Of a stretch of DNA of 64,000 bases, positions 5,840-48,512 are shown piece by piece (position 1 is the first letter of the stretch; each line of letters begins with the position of its first letter). The notes beneath the pieces were generated by a model that did not search any database, was not told where the DNA came from, and saw only the letters and a list, made by a program, of their open reading frames with translations. This stretch comes from a virus. Its lineage: Duplodnaviria; Heunggongvirae; Uroviricota; Caudoviricetes. The DNA is taken from the IMG/VR virus record IMGVR_UViG_3300039452_000031; one strand, written 5' to 3'. Made by a program: the position numbers and the translations under genes.

Positions 5840-6262
5840 ATGACCATGCGATTCAGCGGCGCGGAAATCAAATGCTCTTTGGCGACCATGAACAGGGTTA
5901 TGGCCCTGACTCGCAACCCGGACGGTCCACCTTGGAGGCCCCTTGGGCCTTTCAAGGAAGTGGAAAGTGTGTGGCTCGCCCGATCTGGTGCGAAGCTGCT
6001 TCGCGTAGGCGAGTCTCAATGGCGTGTGAGCGGCTACGACGCCTCTAGGTGGTGGAAGAACAACCTGCGCCGAGATGAGGTTGCGGCTGTTGATGAGCTT
6101 AAGGCTGCCTATCACGTCTATCGTGCTATTGAACACCTCAAGTACGTGGACGCCACTCTCATGACCTCCTATGAATCCAAGATCAACTGGAAAGGGCTGT
6201 GGGGCGTCTACAACGATGGCACTGTCACGCCCGCAGAGGCCACGCTTACTCGAAGGGGCTGA
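5840..6262 (+). CDS. hypothetical protein
   Basis: 140-aa ORF with RBS GAAGG. Confidence 0.45.
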   Translation: MTMRFSGAEIKCSLATMNRVMALTRNPDGPPWRPLGPFKEVESVWLARSGAKLLRVGESQWRVSGYDASRWWKNNLRRDEVAAVDELKAAYHVYRAIEHLKYVDATLMTSYESKINWKGLWGVYNDGTVTPAEATLTRRG

Positions 6263-6264
6263 GA

Positions 6265-8115
6265 ATGAAACTCTCCACCATGTCTCTGGCCGAGAAGAAG
6301 GCCCTGTACTTGAAAGCCAAGAAGGCTTACTACCTGAGCGAGCCTTTGATGCCCGACTCGGCCTTTGATAAGTTGGAGGACTCGATCATTGCCGCCGATC
6401 CTGACTGGAAGCATCTGGCGAAGACTGGGGTGAAGGTGAAGAATGAGGTACCCCTCTTCGAATTCATGCCTTCCCTGGCCAAGGCCTACCCGCATCAAGC
6501 TGATTCGTGGCTGAAGAACAATCCTTCCCACGAGGGATATCTGGTTATGGACAAGTTGGACGGTACGAGCCTCCAACTTCGCATTGAAGGCGGCAAGGCT
6601 GTGAGTCTTCTGACTCGCGGTGATGGTGAGAACGGCAAGGACGTGACGCACCTCCTCAAGTCGACCACACTGCCCAAGTCGGGCGCGACTCTGAAGAACG
6701 CCACCGTTCGCTGCGAAGCTTTGTTCACCAAAAAGGGCTTCAAGAAGTGGGCGGAGGACTTCGACAACGCTCGAAACGGCGTCAACGGGGTCTTCAATCG
6801 CAAGACTGCCCACGCATGCCTTAAGGACGTCCACATCGTGGCTCTAGGGACCTACGGTTCGGCGCTGCTCACCTCACTCGGCTATGCCGAGCAGTGGGGC
6901 TTGGAAGTTGTGCCCCATAAGGTCTTCAAGACCTTGGATAGCCAGAAACTTACCGACTACCTGGAGGAACGCAAGCGTCTCTCTCCCTACGAGATTGACG
7001 GTCTGGTCATCGCTCCTGTGAGGTTCGCTATGAAGTACAATAACAGCGACAAGCCGAAGGGCATCACAGCCTTCAAGGTCAACAGCGACGATGATGCAGT
7101 TCAAGCGGAAGTCCTGAAGATCATCTATCAGGTGACGGGACGCAGGCGCATCATTCCCAAGATTCTGATCAAGCCTGTTCAGATTGGCGGCGTTGTGGTC
7201 AAGCACGCTACGGTCCACAACGGTCAGTGGATGATTGATCGTCATGTTGGTCCCGGGGCAGTCGTCAAGCTGGTACGTTCCGGTGGTGTAATTCCCAAGA
7301 TTGATGACGTGGTCAAAAAGGGCAAGCTTCAGATGCCGGACATCACCTACAAGATGGAAGGCGTTCACTTTGTGACTGCTAAGGAATCGAGGGCCACCTC
7401 AGATCGAGTGGACGTCCTGAACATTGTGAAGTTTATGAAGACCTTTGGTATTGAGCACGTTGCGGCTCCCACGGCAACCAAGCTTCAGAGCAAGCTGCCC
7501 ACGCCGCTGGCCTATGTTAAGGCCTGGAAGGAGGACAAGCTTCGAAATACCATCACAAGCCTAGGCTTCGGCTACGGTCAGGCCAAGAGGATCAACGATG
7601 AATTCGACCGCGTCTTTTCCCAGAAGGTTAAGGTGCGGACTCTCATGGTAGCCCTTCAGGTCTTTGACGCTGGTATCGGGGACCGCAAACTGAAAGCCAT
7701 CGAAGACCATCCGATTCGTCTCGGCACCTTGCTGAAAACCCGCAAGCTTCGAGAGCTACTTCAAGCTGTTCGAGGCTTCTCAGATAGGAGCATAGACCTG
7801 ATCGAGTCAGGGCTGGACAAGTGGGCAGAGGCCTTCACTAGCTTTAGTGAGTTCCTGACAATCGATGACTCCCTGCCTCAGGCCAACAAAAAGCCTTTGG
7901 TAAAGGGTAAGCTTACCGGCCAATGCGTCTCGTGGACGGGTTATCGTTCGAAAGACGAGGAGACCGCTGTAGAGGCAGCAGGTGGGCTAGTCGTTCCTTT
8001 TGGTAGCAAAACCACATTGCTGCTGTTCAAAGCCGATGGCAAAGCCTCTACAAAGGTCGCCAAGGCGGAAGCCAAGGGTGTCAAAGTCACGGCCTTTTCG
8101 AAACTCAAACTCTAA
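6265..8115 (+). CDS. DNA ligase, NAD-dependent type (LigA-like) with C-terminal BRCT-like region
   Basis: N-terminus KKALYLKAKKAYYLSEPLMPDSAFDKLEDSI resembles LigA domain Ia. KxDG adenylation motif in MDKLDGTSLQL. C-terminus is BRCT-like. Start moved to ATG 6265, three nt after the upstream stop. Confidence 0.7.
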   Translation: MKLSTMSLAEKKALYLKAKKAYYLSEPLMPDSAFDKLEDSIIAADPDWKHLAKTGVKVKNEVPLFEFMPSLAKAYPHQADSWLKNNPSHEGYLVMDKLDGTSLQLRIEGGKAVSLLTRGDGENGKDVTHLLKSTTLPKSGATLKNATVRCEALFTKKGFKKWAEDFDNARNGVNGVFNRKTAHACLKDVHIVALGTYGSALLTSLGYAEQWGLEVVPHKVFKTLDSQKLTDYLEERKRLSPYEIDGLVIAPVRFAMKYNNSDKPKGITAFKVNSDDDAVQAEVLKIIYQVTGRRRIIPKILIKPVQIGGVVVKHATVHNGQWMIDRHVGPGAVVKLVRSGGVIPKIDDVVKKGKLQMPDITYKMEGVHFVTAKESRATSDRVDVLNIVKFMKTFGIEHVAAPTATKLQSKLPTPLAYVKAWKEDKLRNTITSLGFGYGQAKRINDEFDRVFSQKVKVRTLMVALQVFDAGIGDRKLKAIEDHPIRLGTLLKTRKLRELLQAVRGFSDRSIDLIESGLDKWAEAFTSFSEFLTIDDSLPQANKKPLVKGKLTGQCVSWTGYRSKDEETAVEAAGGLVVPFGSKTTLLLFKADGKASTKVAKAEAKGVKVTAFSKLKL

Positions 8116-8125
8116 GGAGTAGGAA

Positions 8126-8608
8126 ATGGAAATTCAAGCACGACAACGGCTTCTGGCCATGTCGATATCCAAGGCCGTCGCAGAGGATCGTGTTGTGTCC
8201 TATACAACTCCCTTGGTGGAGCACATCGTTAAAGTCTTGGCCGTTGATTCGCCTTCACGTGAGCACTGGATTGAAGAGATTCAGAACTTTCTGAAGAAGA
8301 TTTTCAGCGCCGCATCAAATGTGAAGACCAAATCCGGGCTGCTGTCCGACAAATTCCTGATCGAACATTGGGAATCAATCGCAGAGCTGGTAGCCCAAGA
8401 CTGCGAAAGCGAGTTAAATCTGGCTTCGCTTCAACGAGGCTACGGCGTTGGCCTTCTTAGCATTCCCTCAAACCTGGAATCGAGGCTAAAGGCCTTGACC
8501 TCAACTTTCTACGAGCTGGTTGTTCAGGTCCATCAACGTAAGACGACTGATCGTCAAGCAGCACGCGACTTTTCCAAAATCTTGTTCGATAGTCTAGGAG
8601 ATGAATAA
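8126..8608 (+). CDS. hypothetical protein
   Basis: 160-aa ORF with RBS AGGAG. Confidence 0.45.
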   Translation: MEIQARQRLLAMSISKAVAEDRVVSYTTPLVEHIVKVLAVDSPSREHWIEEIQNFLKKIFSAASNVKTKSGLLSDKFLIEHWESIAELVAQDCESELNLASLQRGYGVGLLSIPSNLESRLKALTSTFYELVVQVHQRKTTDRQAARDFSKILFDSLGDE

Positions 8609-9879
8609 TGCAGGTTATCAAAGACAAGGGCTCTGTTCCCATCAAGGCCTGGGTTGGTACGCGGGAAGAAGTCATCAAAGACTCCGAAGATGACGTCCCT
8701 TTCGAGAAGGTGATTACCGTTCCAGACATGGAGGACTCTGCCCTTCAGCAGGCGAAAAATATTGCTCGCTTGCCTTTCATCTTCCCCAAAGGGGTGGCAC
8801 TTATGCCTAACGTTCACTGGGGTATGGGGGCCACCATTGGATCTGTGATCCCTTCGGCCAACGTCGTTATCCCTGCCGCTGTGGGTGTGGACATCGGCTG
8901 TGGCATGAACGCCGTGCGCTTGTCTATCAAGGGCTCTCAGTTGCCTGACAATCTCAAGGAAATCCGGCACCAAATCGAGCGAGATGTACCGGTTGGTACG
9001 GGTCGCAATGGGGACCACAACATTGACTGCATTCGGACCTCAGTCACTAACATCCCCATGTCAGTGCTGTACGCTATGGGCTCAAAGTCTGAGGCGAAGG
9101 CTCAAGATCAAGCCCAATTGAAGGCCTCCACCCAACTCGGGACCTTGGGCTCAGAAAACCATTTCATCGAACTCTGTACCGATGAGAATGACGATGTGTG
9201 GGTCATGCTACACTCAGGCTCCCGCGGGATCGGCAATCTGGTCGGACGATACTACGTAGAGAAGGCAAAGGACTTGATGGCCAAGTTCTTTATCAGCCTT
9301 CCGGATAAGGACCTGGCGTACCTGCCTGACGGAACGCAAGAATTTGCCGACTATGTGGAGGCCGTCGAATGGGCGCAGAACTATGCGTTGGAAAATCGTA
9401 AGGAGATGATGTTCCTTACAGTGGCGGCCATCAAGCATCGCCTACCTGAGCTGACCGTGGAAGTCACATCCGAAGCCGTTAGCTGCCACCACAACTACAT
9501 TGCGCGCGAGCACCACTTTGGTCAGAACTTGTGGATCACTCGAAAGGGCGCGGTCCGCGCTCGTGAAGGCGAGCTGGGTATCATTCCCGGCTCTATGGGT
9601 CAGAAGTCCTACATCGTGCGTGGCAAAGGCAACCCTGACAGCTACTGCTCTTGTTCCCACGGAGCTGGTCGTGCAATGTCTCGGGGCCAGGCCCGAGGTA
9701 TGTTCACCGCCTTGGACCTTGAGCGGCAAACCGAAGGAGTTGAATGCCGCAAAGACTTGGAGGTCGTGGACGAGATTCCCAGCGCCTACAAGGATTTGGA
9801 CATCGTGATGGCCAACCAGACTGAGCTGGTGGAAGTAGTCCACACGTTGAAGGCCGTTCTGTGTGTCAAGGGCTCCTGA
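8608..9879 (+). CDS. rtcB: RNA-splicing ligase RtcB
   Basis: Hallmark RtcB blocks: HNYIAREHHFGQNLWITRKGA, GSMGQKSYIV, SCSHGAGRAMSRGQA and HSGSRGIGN. Confidence 0.85.
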   Translation: MQVIKDKGSVPIKAWVGTREEVIKDSEDDVPFEKVITVPDMEDSALQQAKNIARLPFIFPKGVALMPNVHWGMGATIGSVIPSANVVIPAAVGVDIGCGMNAVRLSIKGSQLPDNLKEIRHQIERDVPVGTGRNGDHNIDCIRTSVTNIPMSVLYAMGSKSEAKAQDQAQLKASTQLGTLGSENHFIELCTDENDDVWVMLHSGSRGIGNLVGRYYVEKAKDLMAKFFISLPDKDLAYLPDGTQEFADYVEAVEWAQNYALENRKEMMFLTVAAIKHRLPELTVEVTSEAVSCHHNYIAREHHFGQNLWITRKGAVRAREGELGIIPGSMGQKSYIVRGKGNPDSYCSCSHGAGRAMSRGQARGMFTALDLERQTEGVECRKDLEVVDEIPSAYKDLDIVMANQTELVEVVHTLKAVLCVKGS

Positions 9880-33355: not shown

Positions 33356-33766
33356 ATGGAATGCAATCTGACCCAAGAACGAATTCGGAGCGTCTTTCTC
33401 GCTCACGGCTTCACGATCAAAGAAGGCCATGCCGATCTGAAGCCTTACGTGTATGAGGCAGCCAAGGCCTTGATCGAGGCCTCACTAGCGGACTATGTGT
33501 TGACCAAGAAACCTGAGGTCACGGCCTTGATGCAGATGGCCCGAGCCATGCGCCTTGCCACGCCTGACTTCTACGATACGGCCTACAAGACATTGCAGAC
33601 CGCCCTCTACGGTTTCCTGACCCAGATTCCCAAAGAGGAGGACCTTCGTCAGGTCGGAATCTTGCACGTTGACGATCAAGTTGGCAGACAAGTTAGGTGG
33701 CTGATTCACGATATGCCTGATGACTCTCCGCTGTTTGCCCACAAGATTCACAAGGTTCACAAATGA
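33356..33766 (+). CDS. hypothetical protein
   Basis: 136-aa ORF. Confidence 0.45.
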   Translation: MECNLTQERIRSVFLAHGFTIKEGHADLKPYVYEAAKALIEASLADYVLTKKPEVTALMQMARAMRLATPDFYDTAYKTLQTALYGFLTQIPKEEDLRQVGILHVDDQVGRQVRWLIHDMPDDSPLFAHKIHKVHK

Positions 33767-35052
33767 CGGCCGACACCAACACTGCCTTAAGGCGGGCTCC
33801 CCACAAGAGCCATTGGATGCTCTACCAGACCTACGGCTCGCATCTCTACGGCATGCAATCGGCCGCCAGCGACTGGGATCGCAAGATCATCTACGTCCCG
33901 CAGGAGAGGGACGTGCTGCTTGGTCATCGCCTCTTGACCATCAGGCATCGTTACGATGCAGAAGGCAACCGCATTCACGATCAGGATCCCGTTCCGCCCG
34001 GAGGAGAGGAGCTGGAGTTCATCCCAGTCCAGAAGTTCGTCTTCGACTTTCTGGAAGGCTCCACATACGCCGTGGAGATGGTGCAAGCCTTCAAGGCCTC
34101 TGAGGCCAAGGTCTCTGGCGACCCGCATCTCATTTATCAGACCTTGGCCCTTATGTCAGCGCTGACGGGTATGCGTCACCAGCACGTCAAGAGCATGGTT
34201 GAGTTTGCATCCAAGCAGGTCTACGACTATGTGCATCGTGGTCAGCGCATGGCCTTGGCTGAGAAGGTGCTGTGGGCTGTAAACACAATCGATGCCCTGC
34301 ACGCACAGACTGACTCTGACGTTCGACCCGTGCGCTTGAAGTCTGCCTGGGAGGAAACAACCGTTCTCGATTTTCTGGCCGAGAAGTACGGATTGAAGAT
34401 CGGCCAGACGGAGAACAACGGGCAGCCGTTTCGAACCCTAGTCGTCAACGATAGGGATTATGTGGAAACTGTACCGCTCTACGACCTCGTCGACTCCCTG
34501 ACTAGGATGATCAAGTCCTACGGCAAGCGCTCGTCGGAGGCAGCCAAGGAAGAAGTGGACTGGAAGTCTTTGGCTCACGCTGTTCGGGTCTATGAGCAGG
34601 TCGAGCAGTATCTGTGCCAAGGCCAGATCACCTTTCCGAGGCCTAACGCCGAATGGCTTAGGGACATCAAGTTGGGTCTTATCCCCGTAGAAGAGGTGAA
34701 GGCCCACCTAGTGAACATGGAGAATCGGGTCAAGGCCTTGATAGAGTCCCCGAAGTACCAGTTCTTCGATACCCGTAGTCGAGCTGATCTTCAGCTATGG
34801 GGCGAGCGCATTCTTTTCCTCTTCCTGAAGAGTTTCTACTTCGGTAAGCCGTCTGAGTCTAAGTCGAATGTCTTTGGTGCATTTCGAATTCCGGAGACGA
34901 GCTATAAGACAGTTCAGGTTGTGGAACGCGCGATCTACGTCTGTCCAGACAGGGACATCGAGTGTGGCCCATATGCAGCGAACTGGTGTACTGGCTGCCC
35001 TCATTGGCTTCGAACCTTGCCAGAGGATGACGGATCATCTGCTCTAGACTAG
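33763..35052 (+). CDS. predicted nucleotidyltransferase (RNA-repair-pathway Pol-beta superfamily-like)
   Basis: N-terminus MLYQTYGSHLYGMQSAASDWDRKIIYV fits the GSxxYG...SDxD signature. C-terminal Cys cluster CGPYAANWCTGCPHW. Confidence 0.45.
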   Translation: MTADTNTALRRAPHKSHWMLYQTYGSHLYGMQSAASDWDRKIIYVPQERDVLLGHRLLTIRHRYDAEGNRIHDQDPVPPGGEELEFIPVQKFVFDFLEGSTYAVEMVQAFKASEAKVSGDPHLIYQTLALMSALTGMRHQHVKSMVEFASKQVYDYVHRGQRMALAEKVLWAVNTIDALHAQTDSDVRPVRLKSAWEETTVLDFLAEKYGLKIGQTENNGQPFRTLVVNDRDYVETVPLYDLVDSLTRMIKSYGKRSSEAAKEEVDWKSLAHAVRVYEQVEQYLCQGQITFPRPNAEWLRDIKLGLIPVEEVKAHLVNMENRVKALIESPKYQFFDTRSRADLQLWGERILFLFLKSFYFGKPSESKSNVFGAFRIPETSYKTVQVVERAIYVCPDRDIECGPYAANWCTGCPHWLRTLPEDDGSSALD

Positions 35053-37125: not shown

Positions 37126-37583
37126 CTCCGTTGATGAGCACTCGGTACGTCACTGTTGAGCCAAGCACACTGACGCCCGTAGATACATTTGGTCTCCCCA
37201 TCGCCCACCCTCTTCGGGTTGCTGCCAATGTCCAAACCTATGAGCGCCGTCGCGCAGAAGCTATGGGCTTTGAGTTCAGCCCTGTTGACGTGCTTTGGGT
37301 GGGCAATGGTTATCAGGTGAGTGGGTCCTTCATTTGCATTTGCGGTCGTCAGGAGTGCTACACCTTCCGCGTCTCTGAGATAGAAGTCACGTTAGCACTC
37401 GCCGATCCTGTAGAGGTCATCAATCCCGCTCGACGCCTTGCTGAGGGAGGATCCTTTTCCCGTGAGCATCTGCTTGCCGACGGCTACGACGAAGAAACGG
37501 TGGACTACATTTTGGCCAAGGGCGAGGAGTTCGATGCCGAAAACCCGAAGGCATATTCGTACACCCAACCTACTAGCTGGTGA
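37122..37583 (+). CDS. hypothetical protein
   Basis: ATGA overlap with the upstream gene. The ORF-track start 37041 lies inside that gene. Confidence 0.45.
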   Translation: MTPLMSTRYVTVEPSTLTPVDTFGLPIAHPLRVAANVQTYERRRAEAMGFEFSPVDVLWVGNGYQVSGSFICICGRQECYTFRVSEIEVTLALADPVEVINPARRLAEGGSFSREHLLADGYDEETVDYILAKGEEFDAENPKAYSYTQPTSW

Positions 37584-37864
37584 TGAAAACCCTACGAATT
37601 GTGGCCGCAGCCAACAGGTGGCCTGATGGTGTTATTGTGGTTGGTGTTCGGCATGCTGACCGTATCATGGCCTCTGTTGCCAGAATTGCTCCACATCGAA
37701 GCCTGCACCACACCGAAGAGGGCTTTGTGGACTCGCGTGGTGATTTCCATAGCCGGGAAGCCGCATGGGTGATTGCCTACGCCGCGAATCAGATCCTTCA
37801 CCGCTTGCCAGCCGATACCAAAACGGACGGCACTCATGTCCTTTGGTCCGAAAATCTGTATTGA
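37580..37864 (+). CDS. hypothetical protein
   Basis: GTGATGA coupling. Confidence 0.4.
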   Translation: MMKTLRIVAAANRWPDGVIVVGVRHADRIMASVARIAPHRSLHHTEEGFVDSRGDFHSREAAWVIAYAANQILHRLPADTKTDGTHVLWSENLY

Positions 37865-37932
37865 TATCCTCCTCTTAATTTCATCCAATACTAAGAAAGT
37901 TTTCGGCCCCGTCTAAGTCATAGGAGGACACA

Positions 37933-39573
37933 GTGACTGGCGCAGCACCAAGTTACATTGATTACCTAACGGACCTGATTTGCAGGGTCTCGAACGACCA
38001 TCACATAACATTTCTCTCTGAATCCGGCACTCGCTGGATTGATAACGAGCAATTGCTCTGCTTTGTGGAATATCTGCACGAGGCGGATCGGCAACAGTAC
38101 CTGCATGCGGTTGCCAACCTTGATGGTCACGCCTTCTCCCGCATCAACGCCCGTCTGAAGACCAAGGGCGGTAGCTATGTGTGGATGGAATTCACTTTGA
38201 TTGCCATGTCGGCGGGCAATCAGATCGCCATCTGTGGTCGAGACATCTCCCACTGGAAGACGATTGAAGCCCGCCTTGAGCAGGCTGCCATGTACGACCC
38301 CCTGACTGGTCTCGGCAACCGTTCCCTTCTGGCGAAGGCCATTGATGACTACATCGCGGTCGCTAAACACAACACTTCTGGCTTTGCCCTCTTAGTATTG
38401 GACCTCGACGGCTTCAAGAAGGTCAATGACTCCCTAGGCCATCTGGCGGGGGACGAGATTCTGGTCGAAGCTTCCCGTCGTCTGAAGGGGGTTCTACGCG
38501 AGCAGGATTTAGCAATCCGCATGGGTGGCGATGAGTTCGTCATCATCCTTCCTGGGGCGCGAACCCCGGCTGCCGTCGAAACGGTCTGCATCAAAATCTT
38601 GCGAGCCATTGAGAAGCCGTTCCTCACCGACTCTGGAAACCTGGTTCATCTTTCGACCTCCATCGGTACATCGTTCTACCCTACTCATGCCCATGAGCTT
38701 CAGTCTCTTCTGCAATGCGCAGACTCTGCCATGTATGCGGCAAAGAAGCAGGGAAAGAATTGCTCCAAGGTCTACGATCCCTCTTCTGAGGGTCGTCACA
38801 ACATTGTGACCATGGAGAGTGCAATGTATGCTGGCATCCAGCAAGGCGAATTCTACTTGGAGTTCCAACCCCTGTTCGATCCTTCCGGGGACCGAATGCT
38901 AGGGGCCGAGACCTTGATGCGCTGGCGTTCGGAAACCTTCGGCTCTGTGTCACCAGCGACCTTCATTCAAGTGGCCGAGACCTCTGGGCTTATTGAATAC
39001 CTAGGTGACTGGTGCCTGCGGGCCTCCTGTCACTTCTTGAAGCGCATCAACCTACAGAACCCGGAGTTCAAAATCTCGGTCAACGTATCGTCCCGGCAGT
39101 TCCAGATGCCGTCCTTCAGGTCTTCACTTCAGCGGGCGGTTGCTGAGATTGAGATCAATCCTCATAACCTCATCTTGGAGATCACTGAGAACTCGCTTAT
39201 GAAGGACACGATGGAGGTCATCAACACTCTGGACGAGATTGACGCCCTTGGCGTGTGCGTGGTCCTCGATGACTTTGGCACCGGCTACTCTTCGTTGGCA
39301 TACCTGAGTCGTTTCCGTCTCAAGGCCCTAAAGGTCGACAAGTCTTTCGTGGACAAGATTGGGGTCTCCAAGTCGGATGAAACGATTTGCAGCGCCATCA
39401 TTTCCCTGGCGCATGCTCTAGGTATGTATTGTGTGGCCGAAGGCGTGGAGACCAAGGAGCAGCTGGACTTCGTGGCCTCCTTGGGTTGCAACATGATTCA
39501 AGGCTACTTGTTCGGGAAGCCGTTGGCAGCTAACGCGCTACTCGATCTAATCTTCCAGAAGGCTGTGGCATGA
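37933..39573 (+). CDS. PAS-GGDEF-EAL protein (putative diguanylate cyclase / c-di-GMP phosphodiesterase)
   Basis: AGGAGG RBS 5 nt before GTG. GGDEF domain: LVLDLDGFKKVNDSLGHLAGDEIL ... RMGGDEFVII. EAL domain: ETLMRW, NVS, EITEN, DDFGTGYSS, KVDKSF, AEGVE, QGY. PAS-like N-terminus. Confidence 0.8.
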   Translation: MTGAAPSYIDYLTDLICRVSNDHHITFLSESGTRWIDNEQLLCFVEYLHEADRQQYLHAVANLDGHAFSRINARLKTKGGSYVWMEFTLIAMSAGNQIAICGRDISHWKTIEARLEQAAMYDPLTGLGNRSLLAKAIDDYIAVAKHNTSGFALLVLDLDGFKKVNDSLGHLAGDEILVEASRRLKGVLREQDLAIRMGGDEFVIILPGARTPAAVETVCIKILRAIEKPFLTDSGNLVHLSTSIGTSFYPTHAHELQSLLQCADSAMYAAKKQGKNCSKVYDPSSEGRHNIVTMESAMYAGIQQGEFYLEFQPLFDPSGDRMLGAETLMRWRSETFGSVSPATFIQVAETSGLIEYLGDWCLRASCHFLKRINLQNPEFKISVNVSSRQFQMPSFRSSLQRAVAEIEINPHNLILEITENSLMKDTMEVINTLDEIDALGVCVVLDDFGTGYSSLAYLSRFRLKALKVDKSFVDKIGVSKSDETICSAIISLAHALGMYCVAEGVETKEQLDFVASLGCNMIQGYLFGKPLAANALLDLIFQKAVA

Positions 39574-40928
39574 ACCCGATTTCAAAAGACATCTTGGAAA
39601 AGATGAAGGGGCGTACGGACTTCCCGTCCCTTGCGTCCACAATCTCCCTGCTGCTGGACGAGCTTCGGAAGGTGAACTCTAGCACCTCATCTGCGGAACT
39701 GAATCGCTTGATCTCCACAGACCCTGCGTTGACAAAGAAGGTGCTTCGTCTTTGCAACTCGCCCATGTACGCACAATTCGGTGGGCAGGTGGCTAGCGTT
39801 GAGGAGGCAGTGCGCATTCTAGGCACGCAAGCCATCAACTACTTGGCTCTCAACGTATCGGTTTTGAACTCCTTCACGGACGATAAAGAAGCTGAGGATT
39901 CGAACGCCAAGCTCTCGCTCTCCATTATGGCCGCCAATATGGCGCACGACATTGATGTCGGTGACGATCCTCCGAGCATCAGACCCCTGAACGTCACGAT
40001 TGCCAACTTCGCTCGCCTCTCTGTGGCTTTCTTTCTGCCTGAGCGTTGGGCTAAGGTAGAGGAGGAGATGGCCAAAGGGCAAGATCAAGACCTTGCCTGT
40101 CTTGGGGTGCTTGGCTGCCCGTTGGGTGACGTAGCTAGGGACATTCTCTCCTCATGGCGGTTTCCGGAGTCCCTTATCTCTGTCGCCACCGGGGAAGATC
40201 AACGACCTTACGTGGACTTCTTCAACGCCGCCTCTGAGGAACTAACTCAGGAGGTCCCGAACATGGAGGCTCTGATCGATCGGTTCCCGGCCTTGGTAAC
40301 GCCTACCATTCGGCGTCAGGTGCTGGACTCCTTGGCCGTGGAACAGCAAAAGTTCATGGGTGAGGACACGTTGAGGGCCATCTTTGATAACCGTCGAAAG
40401 AAGTTCAGCGTCGCCTCTGCGTTGGAAGGCATCGACGGCTCTAGGGAAAGCCTGGCCACTTCTCTGCCAAAGCTCATGAAGTGCCTCTTGACTTTTGGAC
40501 CAGATCGGGTAGTTGTGGCCTCCCGAAACATCCTTGGGCCTGATAAGTTCCGCATCCTGTACTTTTACGATAAAGACTCGGGCATGGAGTCCGTTCTTCC
40601 AGAGGACCGTCGCGGCTTCCTCTTGGAGGAGGTGCCCATGATCTCCATCTGCCTGGCCAAGCAAATGGACGTCAACGTGCGAGACGTTCAGGCTCTCAAG
40701 GCGGGATCGAATGTGGCATCCGCACGTCTGGATCTATTTCCGTCTTACATGCGCAGTCTGTGCCTCCTTCCACTGGAGTTCCCGAACCGCTCGCAGAGTG
40801 TTGTCTACTTGGCCTGGAGGGGGCCCAATGCTTTGGACACCAAGGCAATGAATGAGATCCTGAACTTTAAGGCCGCGGTCATCAACGCCGTGTCCTCTTA
40901 CGAGGGCCCTGTGCTAGCCGACGCTTAA
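39570..40928 (+). CDS. HDOD-domain protein (putative c-di-GMP/signal-transduction accessory)
   Basis: KVLRLCNSPMYAQFGGQVASVEEAVRILGTQAI matches the HDOD core pattern. ATGA overlap with the GGDEF-EAL gene. Confidence 0.55.
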   Translation: MNPISKDILEKMKGRTDFPSLASTISLLLDELRKVNSSTSSAELNRLISTDPALTKKVLRLCNSPMYAQFGGQVASVEEAVRILGTQAINYLALNVSVLNSFTDDKEAEDSNAKLSLSIMAANMAHDIDVGDDPPSIRPLNVTIANFARLSVAFFLPERWAKVEEEMAKGQDQDLACLGVLGCPLGDVARDILSSWRFPESLISVATGEDQRPYVDFFNAASEELTQEVPNMEALIDRFPALVTPTIRRQVLDSLAVEQQKFMGEDTLRAIFDNRRKKFSVASALEGIDGSRESLATSLPKLMKCLLTFGPDRVVVASRNILGPDKFRILYFYDKDSGMESVLPEDRRGFLLEEVPMISICLAKQMDVNVRDVQALKAGSNVASARLDLFPSYMRSLCLLPLEFPNRSQSVVYLAWRGPNALDTKAMNEILNFKAAVINAVSSYEGPVLADA

Positions 40929-40948: not shown

Positions 40949-41206
40949 ATGAACTGGCTTGAGAGATTCCGAATCCGTAGACGGATCAAGGCCTTGAAGG
41001 TCGAGGCTTGGATTCATGCACGCGAGGCACTGGCTAAGAAGCTGATCGCCCCAGGGGCGTCTGACTACAATAGCCGGCTCTCGTTGTCTTACCTTAAACA
41101 GGCCCAAGCTTTGGAGGACGTCCTTGAGCGTCACCGTCTGGGTCTGCCCGAAACGTCTGAGTCCACTTTCGCTGAATTTGAGGACTCCCAGAAAGGAAGG
41201 CTATGA
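40949..41206 (+). CDS. hypothetical protein
   Basis: 85-aa ORF with RBS AGGGAGAGGG. Confidence 0.4.
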   Translation: MNWLERFRIRRRIKALKVEAWIHAREALAKKLIAPGASDYNSRLSLSYLKQAQALEDVLERHRLGLPETSESTFAEFEDSQKGRL

Positions 41207-41730
41207 AACTTTGGCAAATCATGTTGGTTGGCACCCTTGGTGCTGGTCTCTTTGGCTTCCTAAAGCCTTACTCCTTGAGAATTCAACCATCAGCGGGAAT
41301 CATGACCGTCATCCATCCTGCGGAGTTCCACTCCGTAGGTGATGTGGTCCAAATTCGTCCTCAAGATCAGGCTCTGGACTCAGATTCGGGAGTAAGCCAC
41401 GGATTTCAAGTCTACGCGCAAGGTCGCGATCCTCTGGCTGAGACCGCGATTGGTGAGATTGCGCCCTTGGCTCGAAAGGATGGTCGACAGTGGGTACGAT
41501 TCTATTTGGCATCGGTCAAGACCTCGAAAGTCATTGCCGGTCCCTTCATGTACGACTGCTCCACCCTGCCCGCTGGGGACGATGGCTACTACAGGATGAT
41601 CAACGGGGTTTGGGTCAAGCTCATGGACTCCAAGCTGGCTCCCATTCCAGGGCACTTTGGACCTGTTCCTGACTATGGGGCAGTTCCTGGGCAGTTCGCT
41701 TGTGAACTTGCCTATGAGGCTAGGCAATGA
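41203..41730 (+). CDS. hypothetical protein with N-terminal TM/signal anchor
   Basis: Hydrophobic N-terminus LWQIMLVGTLGAGLFGFL. ATGA overlap with the upstream gene. Confidence 0.45.
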   Translation: MKLWQIMLVGTLGAGLFGFLKPYSLRIQPSAGIMTVIHPAEFHSVGDVVQIRPQDQALDSDSGVSHGFQVYAQGRDPLAETAIGEIAPLARKDGRQWVRFYLASVKTSKVIAGPFMYDCSTLPAGDDGYYRMINGVWVKLMDSKLAPIPGHFGPVPDYGAVPGQFACELAYEARQ

Positions 41731-42026
41731 ACACGCCGTCCACGCCCTCTCTGACCTTCATGCTGGCCCTAACCATTGGCTTTGCTTTAGGTCTCCTGTT
41801 CGCTTACGTTGTTAACCACTTTCTCTCCAGGGACACGCGCAACGAAGGGGAACCTGAGGCATCGAAACCTATTGCGTTTCCGATGGCATCCTGCCCACGT
41901 GGCAAGGCAGTGCAGTTGTTGAACCCTGGAGGCGTGTGGACCCAAGGAAAGTGGGATGGGGTTGATAACCAATGGCAGGGTTGGTACCCGTTGCCTCCAG
42001 TCCAGGACAGCAAACCTAGACTGTAA
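41727..42026 (+). CDS. hypothetical membrane-anchored protein
   Basis: TM segment LTFMLALTIGFALGLLFAYVV. ATGA overlap with the upstream gene. Confidence 0.4.
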   Translation: MNTPSTPSLTFMLALTIGFALGLLFAYVVNHFLSRDTRNEGEPEASKPIAFPMASCPRGKAVQLLNPGGVWTQGKWDGVDNQWQGWYPLPPVQDSKPRL

Positions 42027-42036
42027 ATAGTAATAC

Positions 42037-42126
42037 GGAACCGTGGCAGAGCGATTTATTGCAGCGGCCTTGAAAGCCGCCGATGGGGAAGCCTATCCGT
42101 GGGTTTGAATCCCACCGGTTCCGCCA
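42037..42126 (+). tRNA. tRNA-Ser (anticodon TGA)
   Basis: Perfect 7-bp acceptor GGAACCG/CGGTTCC. Anticodon loop CTTGAAA. Long variable arm. T-loop TTTGAAT. Encoded GCCA 3' end. Confidence 0.9.
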
Positions 42127-42141
42127 TACATGGAATAGTGC

Positions 42142-42711
42142 ATGAAGATCCAAGCTAAAATGCGATTGACCGACTCCTTAGTGCTGGGTGCCCACCGCAC
42201 TATCGAGCAAGCTATTCTGGTACCTGAGGTTGCCAAGGCGGTCAAGGACTTTGTCAAGTCATATGGGAAGTCGTTGCTCCTCATAGGTGGCATTGCGGTC
42301 TCTTACTACACCAGACCAAGGGCTACCACTGACGCAGATTTTCTGTTCTCGTCGTCAGAAGCGGCTCCAGATCGAGTTGAAGGCTTCAAGCGAATTCGTG
42401 CTCATGCCTTTCTTCACCTTGAAACGCATGTTGAACTGGAAATCCTAGACCCTGACTTCTTGGGCATAAGTGAAACCTTATACGCTCAGGTGGAGACCTC
42501 GGCTGTACGAGTAGCTGAGCACTTATCGTTGCCGTCCATCGCTGGGCTTATAGCTCTAAAGACTTGTCGATTGAGTTTTCAAGACAAGGCGGATATCGAC
42601 AACCTGCTTAGGGTTCTTGAACAGCGCGGCAAGGAGTTCTCTATACCCGAATGGGACGTACCGCATGAAAAGGTAGAGGCATTCAATGCCTTTTTGAAAG
42701 AACGATGCTAG
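42142..42711 (+). CDS. nucleotidyltransferase-fold protein (AbiEii/minimal NTase-like motif)
   Basis: LLLIGGIAVSYYTRPRATTDADFLF fits the GG...(R)xT/S-DxD NTase signature. Confidence 0.4.
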   Translation: MKIQAKMRLTDSLVLGAHRTIEQAILVPEVAKAVKDFVKSYGKSLLLIGGIAVSYYTRPRATTDADFLFSSSEAAPDRVEGFKRIRAHAFLHLETHVELEILDPDFLGISETLYAQVETSAVRVAEHLSLPSIAGLIALKTCRLSFQDKADIDNLLRVLEQRGKEFSIPEWDVPHEKVEAFNAFLKERC

Positions 42712-42971
42712 GAGACTTGATGAACAATATGGAGCGTAGGGTGTTATATGTTGTGGCCAACACCATTGGTAGGGACCTCAAGGAGATGAATTTGGACATG
42801 ACCTTGGAGGAGTTGGAAATCGACTCCCTAGACAACGCGGAGATCATGCTCGAACTGGAAGAGGAATTCGAAATTCAGATTCCAGACAATGTGTGGCGCC
42901 CGCCTCCGCAGACCATCAACGCATATGTCAATAGGGTTGAGGCCTATCTATCGACTTTCAAGTCTGACTAA
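42705..42971 (+). CDS. acyl carrier protein-like
   Basis: LEELEIDSLDNAEIMLELEEEFEIQIPD has a DSL phosphopantetheine-attachment-type motif in ACP helix-II context. 88 aa. Confidence 0.55.
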   Translation: MLGDLMNNMERRVLYVVANTIGRDLKEMNLDMTLEELEIDSLDNAEIMLELEEEFEIQIPDNVWRPPPQTINAYVNRVEAYLSTFKSD

Positions 42972-47699: not shown

Positions 47700-47929
47700 A
47701 GTCCATACTGGGGACCTATACTCCTAACCAAACACGCGGCGAGTGTGAAGTAGAGTCCACACGCAGTTGCGACCCGGGGCGACCAGCGGTGCTGGAAGGC
47801 AATCAATGAGGTCCTGAACGGCAGGGCAACCCAACAGCGCAAGATCGTATCGATAAGTCGTTTTACGAAAGCCTGATTCAAGACCTCACCATTTGTAGTC
47901 CGTGAGATACACAGAATAAAGCATGTGAG

Positions 47930-48008
47930 TGGTCGGTGAAAACTAGGACCACGGAAAGCAGACGTTGATGGGTGCAAGACCCGGGTTCGATTCCCGGCAG
48001 CTCCACCA
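47930..48008 (+). ncRNA. ssrA: tmRNA (ssrA), acceptor piece of a circularly permuted two-piece tmRNA; 5' boundary approximate
   Basis: 3' end AAGACCCGGGTTCGATTCCCGGCAGCTCCACCA parallels the E. coli tmRNA 3' end (...GGACGCGGGUUCAACUCCCGCCAGCUCCACCA). T-arm CCGGG-TTCGATT-CCCGG. Acceptor 3' strand CAGCTCC, discriminator A, encoded CCA. Confidence 0.75.
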
Positions 48009-48080
48009 CTAGGTTCTTACAAGGGCCTAGTAGTGCGTTCTGAACATTGCTCGATGAGTTCAGAGTAGGGCCCTAGTGAT

Positions 48081-48300
48081 GGGGCTGAACTGGTTTCGAT
48101 TGCGTTGCTGAGACTGAAGCTACATGCCGAGGTAGTATGGATCCTCGTTAAAAGCCTATGCAACAAAAGTAACTGCAGCCAATGACAGCAGCTTCGATCA
48201 GCGCCTCGCGGCCTGATCGACAAAGCTCTGCCGGGTTCTACCTAGCTTAGGTTAGGTGTGTACGGCGGAGGGCCCGGGCACCTGATAATGACGGTGTCTT
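48081..48300 (+). ncRNA. ssrA: tmRNA (ssrA), coding piece: acceptor 5' strand, PK1 and tag ORF AANDSSFDQRLAA; 3' boundary approximate
   Basis: GGGGCTGAACTGGTTTCGATTGCG parallels GGGGCUGAUUCUGGAUUCGACGGG. It pairs with CAGCTCC, giving a G3:U70 pair. PK1 reads CATGCCGAGG...CCTCGTTAAAAGCC, as in E. coli CAUGCCGAGG...CCUCGUAAAAAGCC. Resume codon GCA at 48175 and TGA at 48214-16. Confidence 0.8.
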
Positions 48301-48512
48301 TGACAGAGCGCAAGCTCAATGAACCCGGGCCACCTTTCTCTTTGCAAGGCGATTGTGAAGCCCATTCCGACCAGATGGCCATCTGGGTAGCTCGATTCTT
48401 GAGTGTCGGTTATACGCCACATTCTCGTCCTGATGTTTTGCTAGGACAGCCACTACCTGTCTTAGGAAAGCATGAGTGGGTTTCACAATCTCTTTATTTC
48501 CTGGAGATGAAC

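Follow-up and report, generated by a model that had tools for sequence, protein, structure and literature searches.

A 64,000-nt stretch of jumbo phage DNA (hereafter, the window) carries two overlapping genes encoding a PAS-GGDEF-EAL enzyme (protein A) and an HDOD-GAF protein (protein B), homologous to the CdpA/I2285 pair of Burkholderia. As judged by comparative sequence analysis, this gene pair is not a phage invention but a two-gene unit of the CdpA/I2285 type, strictly conserved in betaproteobacteria, that was captured by a phage. On balance, we favor a reading in which the two proteins form a phage-resident signalling pair whose net effect would be c-di-GMP degradation, leaving the infected cell motile and low in matrix.

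Domains and active sites of the two proteins

The two genes and their features are located in the window as follows.

37922..37927, + strand: Shine-Dalgarno sequence AGGAGG, 5 nt before the GTG start of gene A (read from sequence)
37933..39573, + strand: gene A (ORF, GTG start at 37933), encoding the 546-aa PAS-GGDEF-EAL protein, a CdpA-like c-di-GMP enzyme
37954..38244, + strand: PAS-like sensor domain, residues 8-104 (model topology, Foldseek, Pfam matches of homologues)
38287..38760, + strand: GGDEF domain, residues 119-276 (Pfam and alignment)
38833..39522, + strand: EAL domain, residues 301-530 (Pfam and alignment)
39570..39573, + strand: ATGA overlap, start of gene B over stop of gene A (read from sequence)
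39570..40928, + strand: gene B (ORF), encoding the 452-aa HDOD-GAF protein, an I2285-like partner
39624..40187, + strand: HDOD domain, residues 19-206 (Pfam)
40452..40904, + strand: divergent GAF-like domain, residues ~295-445

The original prediction, made from the DNA letters, had proposed a PAS-GGDEF-EAL protein coupled to an HDOD protein through an ATGA overlap, with a domain HMM search as a check. The overlap is real, and Pfam recovered GGDEF (1.6e-45; 155.2 bits against a gathering cut-off of 23.8) and EAL (1.9e-68; 230.8 bits against 31.3) in protein A and HDOD (2.4e-21, residues 19-206) in protein B, all far beyond chance. The GGDEF domain is intact (DLDGFKKVND, GHLAGD, GGDEF), as is the I-site, REQD (RxxD), which lies five residues ahead of GGDEF (REQD-LAIRM-GGDEF). 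The EAL set is complete, with ETLMR, NVS, EITEN, DDFGTGYSS (loop 6), KVDKS, AEGVE and QGY. The closest solved relative by sequence is MorA (4RNH, 8e-92), in which the motifs align identically; every GGDEF and EAL hallmark quoted in the original prediction is present, and none is degenerate.

The proposed PAS domain did not reach Pfam cut-offs in protein A (PAS_3, 16.9 versus 25.6 bits; PAS_9, 15.3 versus 27), but the modelled fold is that of PAS. In the AlphaFold model (overall pLDDT 89.2), residues 8-104 show the PAS-type beta2-alpha-beta3 topology at pLDDT ~81-96, and Foldseek aligned the model over ~555 columns with the PAS-GGDEF-EAL structure of RbdA (5XGB) and, also at full length, with DosP. 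Close homologues of protein A match Pfam PAS_4, PAS_9 or PAS, and structural matches to EAL domains gave TM-scores of 0.85-0.95 (target-length-normalised). RbdA (PA0861) and MorA of Pseudomonas aeruginosa provide its best sequence and structure matches; they share the three-domain architecture and, like protein A, have intact GGDEF and EAL motifs. However, they are only 26-38% identical to protein A, are membrane-anchored multi-PAS proteins, and have no known HDOD-GAF partner gene.

For protein B, the predicted HDOD domain stands, with an all-helical HDOD fold in addition to the Pfam match, but a C-terminal GAF domain had been overlooked, so the partner is an HDOD-GAF protein. Pfam GAF did not match the window protein itself but did match 10 of the 36 relatives in the alignment, and the C-terminal region of protein B has the GAF fold. 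The whole protein contains a single His (H126), and the His/Asp metal set of HD-superfamily phosphohydrolases is absent. The di-iron site of 3HC1, by comparison, comprises five His and one Asp (PMC12075610), and on this evidence the HDOD domain of protein B is non-catalytic. SadB of P. aeruginosa and GsmR of X. campestris similarly lack the full set of metal-binding His residues, and these HDOD adaptors control motility and biofilm without catalysis (PMC12075610, PMC9040570). They differ in layout: a YbaK-like domain forms the N terminus of SadB, and GsmR contains a receiver domain, whereas protein B is an N-terminal HDOD fused to GAF.

W196 of protein B is invariant (81/81 sequences) and aligns with W206 of the Burkholderia HDOD protein P0283. 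Several other family-conserved residues are changed in the phage protein (H91Y, E137I, H359S and P383A), and it may function otherwise than I2285. An exhaustive HMMER search with protein B found 3887 relatives, the best of which (P0124) matched over the full length at 5e-49. A word-index protein search returned only protein B itself and two weak matches, and its exact sequence is not on record.

The bacterial gene pair and the direction of signalling

We scanned genomes for HDOD-GAF loci with a 9-sequence alignment. An enzyme homologue lies directly upstream, on the same strand, in every assessable bacterial or metagenomic locus with an HDOD-GAF relative (158/158, comprising 80/80 reference-genome and 78/78 assessable metagenome loci). 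From the enzyme side, the partner is present beside three of the five nearest homologues checked. In 29 bacterial loci, as well as in L003 and L170, the two genes overlap by the same 4 nt, and in NJ trees the L003 pair is the sister of both phage genes. Identity of any relative to the phage pair is below 50% for the enzyme and ~30% for the partner. A metagenome scan with the single protein gave no match, while a scan with the alignment gave bacterial-type relatives only, at ~30% identity; an apparent 56% metagenome match was a 48-residue fragment. Save for one or two, the near relatives lie in bacterial chromosomes. It should also be noted that on a phage-like contig (L002), which may encode FliM/FliN homologues, the gene after P0005 is not HDOD.

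The characterised pair of this type consists of Burkholderia CdpA, a c-di-GMP phosphodiesterase (Bp1026b_I2284 / BCAL1069), and the adjacent HDOD protein I2285 / BCAL1068, which act in one pathway promoting swimming (PMC9040570). Deletion of cdpA or I2285 reduces swimming, with no additive effect, over-expression of either gene increases it, and c-di-GMP is raised in the cdpA mutant (PMC9040570, PMC5835511). Published residues of I2285 are H179, Y194 and W205, of which W205 is required for function (PMC9040570). The pair was reported not to be co-transcribed in planktonic culture of B. pseudomallei, and a B. cenocepacia BCAL1068 insertion mutant swims normally (PMC9040570, PMC5835511), suggesting that the role of the HDOD partner is not uniform.

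The phage pair has the same gene order and strand as the Burkholderia pair and the same layout, in which a cytoplasmic PAS-GGDEF-EAL enzyme precedes an HDOD protein extended by a C-terminal domain, and its partner protein keeps the invariant Trp that I2285 function requires. At the Burkholderia locus that we compared (L168), P0283 comes after a PAS-GGDEF(ASDKF)-EAL gene, and its residues at the published I2285 sites are H179 and F195/W206. Protein A shares 35% identity with Burkholderia CdpA across residues 14-536 (E 2e-97), and protein B shares 28% with P0283 across residues 11-200, the HDOD domain only (E 9e-22). The two pairs also differ in several ways. The phage copy sits in a jumbo phage, its enzyme is shorter (546 versus 611 aa), its genes overlap by 4 nt where L168 has a 34-nt gap, and its HDOD-GAF protein is highly divergent, lacking the His91 and His359 conserved in the family of the Burkholderia pair. 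Furthermore, GGDEF and I-site are intact in the phage enzyme, in contrast to the ASDKF of Burkholderia CdpA, whose GGDEF motif was described as degenerate (PMC9040570). As GGDEF is kept in 63 of 79 family members, as in the window, the degenerate motif appears to be Burkholderia-specific and not family-defining. The literature consulted describes these two Burkholderia genes only as adjacent. Strict co-occurrence in every locus examined and joint capture by a phage provide strong comparative evidence that the two proteins function together as one unit.

The family also informs the direction of signalling. Of the 79 members of this HDOD-linked family, essentially every one keeps the EAL motifs unchanged, whereas the GGDEF signature is degenerate in 16. 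This family-level pattern suggests that cyclase activity may be dispensable, and the repeated decay of GGDEF beside an invariant EAL makes net c-di-GMP degradation the most likely outcome. The original prediction had regarded the enzyme as competent in both activities. That holds at the level of motifs, but the family pattern and the characterised orthologues favor phosphodiesterase as the core activity.

An alternative is that the enzyme is mainly a diguanylate cyclase, or switchable, and raises c-di-GMP, stopping motility, adding matrix and perhaps excluding superinfecting phages (cf. YIP/YfiN). We regard this as unlikely, although several observations speak for it. Protein A retains GGDEF, the metal- and GTP-binding residues (including the substrate-binding Asp/Asn/Asp) and the RxxD I-site, and its 46 closest homologues show little or no variation at these sites (GGDEF and D192 invariant, R189 at least 90% conserved), so a cyclase or switchable bifunctional enzyme is possible. 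MorA, the nearest solved relative, is described as a tandem diguanylate cyclase-phosphodiesterase, and there is phage precedent for raised c-di-GMP (PMC8085984). On the other hand, GGDEF decays among the HDOD-linked members and EAL never does, and c-di-GMP goes up when the characterised orthologues, which are phosphodiesterases, are lost (PMC5835511, PMC9040570). The sister locus L003 itself has a degenerate GGDEF (GEDAF) with an intact EAL. In RbdA-type enzymes an intact GGDEF is a GTP-binding activator of EAL.

Residence in a jumbo phage

The window comes from a jumbo phage that is distant kin of Ralstonia phiRSL1 and Burkholderia BcepSauron; with phiRSL1 and BcepSauron/Saruman, the nearest phages, it shares ~50% aa identity. 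It encodes NAD ligase, RtcB, both topoisomerase II subunits and a gp32-like SSB, together with six tRNAs and a tmRNA, and this content and kinship bear out the phage setting that had been proposed. The tRNAs and tmRNA were the only Rfam matches in the window, with no c-di-GMP riboswitch among them. Phage-family genes lie within a few hundred bases on both sides of the module, and three small ORFs follow it.

37580-37864: phrog_839 gene (phage family), upstream flank
40949-41206, 41203-41730 and 41727-42026, + strand: three small ORFs (85, 175 and 99 aa) with mutual 4-nt overlaps
42037: tRNA, downstream flank
42705: ACP-like phrog_5934 gene, downstream flank

All genes around the module are on the same strand, and GC is even (0.52-0.55). 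GC, GC3 and codon usage of the module are those of 15 phage core ORFs, with codon usage indistinguishable, and its composition is unlike that of the bacterial loci of the family, which average ~62% GC. This suggests that the gene pair is long-resident in the phage. A promoter and terminator scan found fewer sites than in shuffled controls, with no conspicuous signal.

The original prediction had extended the operon into the three small ORFs, two of them described as membrane-anchored. The ORFs are present; a hydrophobic helix is clear in the 99-aa product (Kyte-Doolittle 19-residue mean 2.36), marginal in the 175-aa product (1.39) and absent from the 85-aa product. However, none of the products matched a Pfam or PHROG family significantly, and tblastn found no counterparts in the related loci L001-L087. 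With nothing tying them to the module, we rejected the small ORFs as members.

Such genes had been predicted to be uncommon in phages, and the IMG/VR and GenBank phage comparisons agree. In IMG/VR, neither of the two proteins nor the HDOD-GAF alignment drew a match, so no HDOD-GAF relative and hence no second copy of the pair turned up there. GenBank phages gave three weak partial HDOD matches and no further HDOD-GAF relative, and no megablast match to the 20 kb around the module. The module is absent from the closest known phages. Protein A matches phrog_11823 at 7.7e-139, and other phage GGDEF/EAL genes are annotated in Bacillus jumbo phage SP-15, Acetobacter phiAX1, Pseudomonas Y1, a cyanophage AS-1 fragment and PHROG 11823. 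These are mostly GGDEF-only, none exceeds 38% identity to protein A, and none has an HDOD-GAF partner, unlike the window. Most 'phage' matches to the enzyme are unannotated fragments or bacterial contigs. Our literature search found no paper on phage GGDEF auxiliary metabolic genes.

The absence of the pair from other IMG/VR phages and from the closest known phages, and the three weak partial HDOD matches in GenBank phages, would fit a neutral host-derived passenger with no role in infection. This seems improbable, since both ORFs are intact, the catalytic residues and invariant Trp are kept at identities below 50% (enzyme) and ~30% (partner), the composition is fully phage-adapted, the ribosome-binding site is strong, and the two genes are coupled where they meet.

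Even more doubtful is an anti-defence device that degrades CBASS-type cyclic-dinucleotide signals or senses them through GAF, a role related to the cyclic-nucleotide defence option of the original prediction. Phosphodiesterases of several families that act against nucleotide signals have been predicted in jumbo phages (PMC7824862), and the RtcB, tRNAs and tmRNA of the window are RNA-repair genes typical of conflict systems. However, the families listed in that review are HD-GYP, DHH, calcineurin-like and 2H, and not EAL (PMC7824862), and the partners and phenotypes of the present family belong to c-di-GMP and motility signalling (PMC9040570). The EAL barrel is ordinary, and neither A, B nor their neighbours matched PADLOC, which holds no phage counter-defence enzymes; the defence option is thus unsupported. 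The EAL fold is not known to be related to the anti-CBASS or anti-Pycsar nucleases described so far.

That bacterial genes acquired a phage setting through mis-assembly or a prophage flank, as the bacterial-chromosomal location of nearly all near relatives might suggest, is very improbable given phage-family genes close on both sides (phrog_839, the tRNA at 42037, phrog_5934), a single strand throughout, uniform GC and codon usage indistinguishable from that of phage core genes.

Proposed role during infection

In the phosphodiesterase reading that we favor, A and B would both be translated from one message in the infected cell, and the EAL domain would hydrolyze host c-di-GMP. The intact GGDEF may serve as a regulatory site that binds GTP or c-di-GMP, and could perhaps also work as a cyclase under some conditions. 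An adaptor or regulatory role in the same pathway would fall to the HDOD-GAF protein, much like that of I2285 beside CdpA, with physical or functional coupling between the two proteins. As c-di-GMP falls, the infected cell would become motile and low in matrix, and the phage may gain from the spread of infected cells and progeny, or from altered receptor surface structures. By analogy with the characterised systems, the phage probably resets the motile-versus-biofilm switch of its host during infection.

Lytic phages are already known to meddle with host c-di-GMP, motility and biofilm. The YIPs of PB1-like Pseudomonas phages are small peptides that activate the host cyclase YfiN, so that c-di-GMP rises (PMC8085984). 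In contrast, the phage described here brings its own enzyme and partner and, from the sequence comparisons, would most likely lower c-di-GMP.

We tentatively raise a further possibility, that the pair is a rewired host CdpA/HDOD-GAF pair acting as a takeover device, which would keep the infected cell permanently motile at low c-di-GMP, or change its flagellar or pilus receptors. Given the divergence of the sensor pockets (a weak PAS, and a partner without His91 and His359), the pair might ignore host signals. HDOD-GAF would then be an obligate physical partner of CdpA-type phosphodiesterases, as the strict 158/158 linkage and the joint capture of both genes may indicate. If so, the long-uncharacterised HDOD domain would gain a defined role, and the pair offers a concrete, testable handle on its function.

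If the module is active, a lytic-type jumbo phage carries a complete host second-messenger module, comprising an enzyme and its dedicated partner. Viruses would then directly steer the motile-versus-sessile decision of their hosts, where other phages aim a small peptide at a host enzyme.

Two overlapping genes and their products

The pair in the window is a genuine copy, carried by a phage, of the c-di-GMP module known from Burkholderia, where it consists of the phosphodiesterase CdpA and the HDOD protein I2285. As the original prediction had it, a gene for a PAS-GGDEF-EAL enzyme (gene A) and a gene for an HDOD protein (gene B) lie on the same strand and share ATGA, such that gene B begins within the stop codon of gene A. 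Pfam searches recovered the GGDEF, EAL and HDOD domains at significant E-values.

Features of the module and its surroundings
6199–9879 and 33763–35052: NAD-dependent DNA ligase, RtcB RNA ligase and phrog_388 nucleotidyltransferase; repair set typical of large phages
37580–37864: phrog_839 gene (phage family), flanking the module
5 nt upstream of the gene A GTG, + strand: AGGAGG box, read from the sequence
37933–39573, + strand: gene A, PAS-GGDEF-EAL enzyme; ORF of 546 aa, GTG start
Protein A residues 8–104: PAS-type domain (beta2-alpha-beta3 unit in the AlphaFold model)
Protein A residues 119–276: GGDEF domain (Pfam, 1.6e-45)
Protein A residues 301–530: EAL domain (Pfam, 1.9e-68)
39570–40928, + strand: gene B, HDOD protein; ORF of 452 aa
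Protein B residues 19–206: HDOD domain (Pfam, 2.4e-21)
42142–42711: 189-aa ORF between tRNA-Ser and tRNA-Met; weak match to an AbiEii-type nucleotidyltransferase (E 0.0034, under the cut-off)
42705–42971: 88-aa acyl-carrier-protein-like gene between the same tRNAs (phrog_5934, 9e-13)
Between 42037 and 53871: six tRNAs (Ser-TGA, Met-CAT, Arg-TCT, Leu-TAG, Gly-TCC, Arg-CCT)
47916–48307: permuted tmRNA (two-piece type), tag peptide AANDSSFDQRLAA; Rfam match 47952–48216

The PAS domain of protein A is supported by fold but not by Pfam, whose PAS models scored under their cut-offs. Foldseek matched the RbdA PAS-GGDEF-EAL structure and DosP to the whole AlphaFold model (pLDDT 89.2; 46 homologues as input), residues 8–104 included. 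The GGDEF and EAL motifs align residue for residue with those of MorA (4RNH), a solved Pseudomonas relative, and none of the hallmark catalytic residues is degenerate. An inactive MorA mutant (4RNF) differs from 4RNH by a DDFG to NNFG change; the same site is intact in protein A.

Three small ORFs follow the pair as predicted, but only the 99-aa product, rather than two of the three, has a clear membrane helix. None of the three has a family (Pfam, PHROG) or a homologue in related loci L001–L087. In the window, Rfam found no c-di-GMP riboswitch, PADLOC defence models gave no match for A, B or their neighbours, and there was no convincing promoter or terminator.

The pair as a conserved bacterial unit

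While a word-index search returned next to no relatives of protein B, an exhaustive HMMER search returned 3887. Many of the best are 430–500 aa long with an N-terminal HDOD domain, and several match over the full length. Since Pfam GAF or GAF_2 is found in the C-terminal half of 10 of 36 aligned relatives, and the conserved C-terminal block of that alignment is present in protein B too, protein B is an HDOD-GAF protein.

A GGDEF-EAL gene precedes the HDOD-GAF gene in each of the three nearest relatives. A genome scan (one genome per species, 9-sequence HDOD-GAF alignment as query) returned 80 loci, nearly all from Betaproteobacteria, including Pandoraea, Massilia, Noviherbaspirillum, Oxalicibacterium, Janthinobacterium, Variovorax, Rhodoferax, Nitrosomonadales, Thiobacillus and Gallionellaceae. 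All 80 have a same-strand homologue of protein A (36–47% identity) that ends directly ahead of the HDOD gene, and 29 show the 4-nt overlap seen in the window. A metagenome scan added 80 loci, with the enzyme-then-HDOD arrangement in 78/78 that had sufficient upstream sequence. From the enzyme side, five of the nearest homologues were examined: P0006, P0008 and P0014 are followed by a partner, and no downstream HDOD partner was found for the other two (P0004 and P0005).

P0004, the single closest enzyme homologue (49% identity; L001 8319–11638, ENA ERZ25039527 contig_134508), lies in an ordinary bacterial chromosome. It adjoins an IS110-family transposase and lacks the HDOD partner, suggesting that solo enzyme copies move around. 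The betaproteobacterial-type pair also appears in MAGs labelled Bradyrhizobium (L059), Candidatus Paceibacteria (L062) and Rhodospirillaceae (L081); as these loci are almost identical to Oxalobacteraceae loci, binning contamination is suggested.

Locus L079, from a Burkholderia MAG, encodes an HDOD protein that matches HDOD proteins of Burkholderia species at 53–57% identity over the full length. One of these, P0283, is encoded 34 nt downstream of the gene for a 611-aa PAS-GGDEF-EAL protein with an ASDKF motif, and has H179, F195 and W206, within one residue of the published I2285 numbering. The window enzyme is 35% identical to the Burkholderia partner-linked enzyme (E 2e-97), and protein B is 28% identical to P0283 in the HDOD domain only (E 9e-22). 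The B. pseudomallei gene cdpA (I2284) specifies a PAS-GGDEF*-EAL phosphodiesterase and lies next to I2285, the gene for an HDOD protein; deletion of either reduces swimming, the double mutant is no worse, overexpression of either increases swimming, and I2285 function requires W205 with Y194 (PMC9040570). Loss of cdpA in B. cenocepacia raises c-di-GMP and reduces swimming (PMC5835511).

Phage setting and rarity among phages

All sizeable ORFs of the window are on one strand. Encoded type II topoisomerase (both subunits) and gp32-like single-strand-binding protein are closest to those of jumbo phages (Ralstonia phiRSL1, Burkholderia BcepSauron/Saruman; ~45–52% identity), and no GenBank phage matches the window at the nucleotide level. 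In composition, genes A and B (GC 0.541 and 0.553; GC3 0.67 and 0.68; codon-usage cosine 0.94 and 0.92) match 15 phage core ORFs (GC 0.542 ± 0.015; leave-one-out cosine mean 0.919) and differ from the related bacterial loci (mean GC 0.617). Given the flanking phage-family genes and the phage-like GC, GC3 and codon usage, the pair has long resided in a jumbo phage of betaproteobacterial type. The same flanks and composition make an assembly artefact very unlikely as its origin.

The module was expected to be uncommon in phages, and this is borne out. Searching IMG/VR with protein A, protein B and the HDOD-GAF alignment gave no relative. The best GenBank phage matches to protein A reach at most 38% identity and are mostly faecal fragments lacking annotation or bacterial contigs catalogued as phage; the matches from isolated phages were only genes with GGDEF alone (Bacillus SP-15, Acetobacter phiAX1, Pseudomonas Y1, a Klebsiella prophage) and, in cyanophage AS-1, a GGDEF-EAL fragment. 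Protein B has three weak partial matches only. Among the PHROGs are GGDEF-EAL families whose function is unknown. YIP peptides are a known case of phages interfering with c-di-GMP (PMC8085984), mucR- or yhjH-like genes are listed in virome surveys (PMC11295528), and EAL proteins are not covered in a review on jumbo-phage counter-nucleotide enzymes.

One other phage-like contig (L002 1–11857; Logan SRR13608703_125736, 40.4 kb, 35.5% GC over the locus) encodes a GGDEF-EAL enzyme 47% identical to that of the window, with no HDOD partner after it. In its phage-like block, unrelated to the window, are NAMPT, NMNAT-NUDIX, ~20 small ORFs on the same strand and several PHROGs. If this contig does belong to a virus, the FliM- and FliN-like genes at the locus start would be consistent with a motility theme. 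A short contig from the same sample, which may be either viral or bacterial (L003 1–7832; Logan SRR13608703_1940503, 41% GC) has a pair with the window's 4-nt overlap and, upstream, a divergently transcribed membrane GGDEF (GGEEF) gene.

Activity of the enzyme and its partner

Comparison of 79 HDOD-linked family enzymes shows virtually no variation in the EAL motifs. The GGDEF signature is degenerate in 16 of them and preserved in the other 63, and the RxxD site is variable. The L003 pair, which both gene trees place as sister of the window pair, combines an intact EAL with a GGDEF that has degenerated to GEDAF. This pattern of conservation and decay points to phosphodiesterase as the family's conserved activity. 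The window enzyme retains GGDEF, substrate residues and I-site, and these are invariant or nearly so among its 46 closest homologues, indicating selection on the site there. In RbdA-type enzymes, the GGDEF site serves as a GTP or c-di-GMP sensor. The window site could be such a sensor, or a true cyclase.

Protein B contains a single histidine. Since the metal site of the structure 3HC1 consists of five His and one Asp (PMC12075610), protein B is unable to form such a site. Its most plausible role is that of an adaptor or sensor without catalytic activity. W196, invariant in 81 of 81 family members, aligns with W206 of P0283. Protein B departs from residues at least 90% conserved among these members (H91 to Y, E137 to I, H359 to S, P383 to A), and the His-to-Ser change in the GAF 'FH.AL' motif is shared with L003, which suggests a change in ligand or partner recognition in the window/L003 clade.

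Most likely, the module lowers host c-di-GMP, with the partner acting in the same pathway. A useful by-product of this analysis is the strict enzyme-partner linkage. This type of module is already known; the unusual point is that a jumbo phage carries it.
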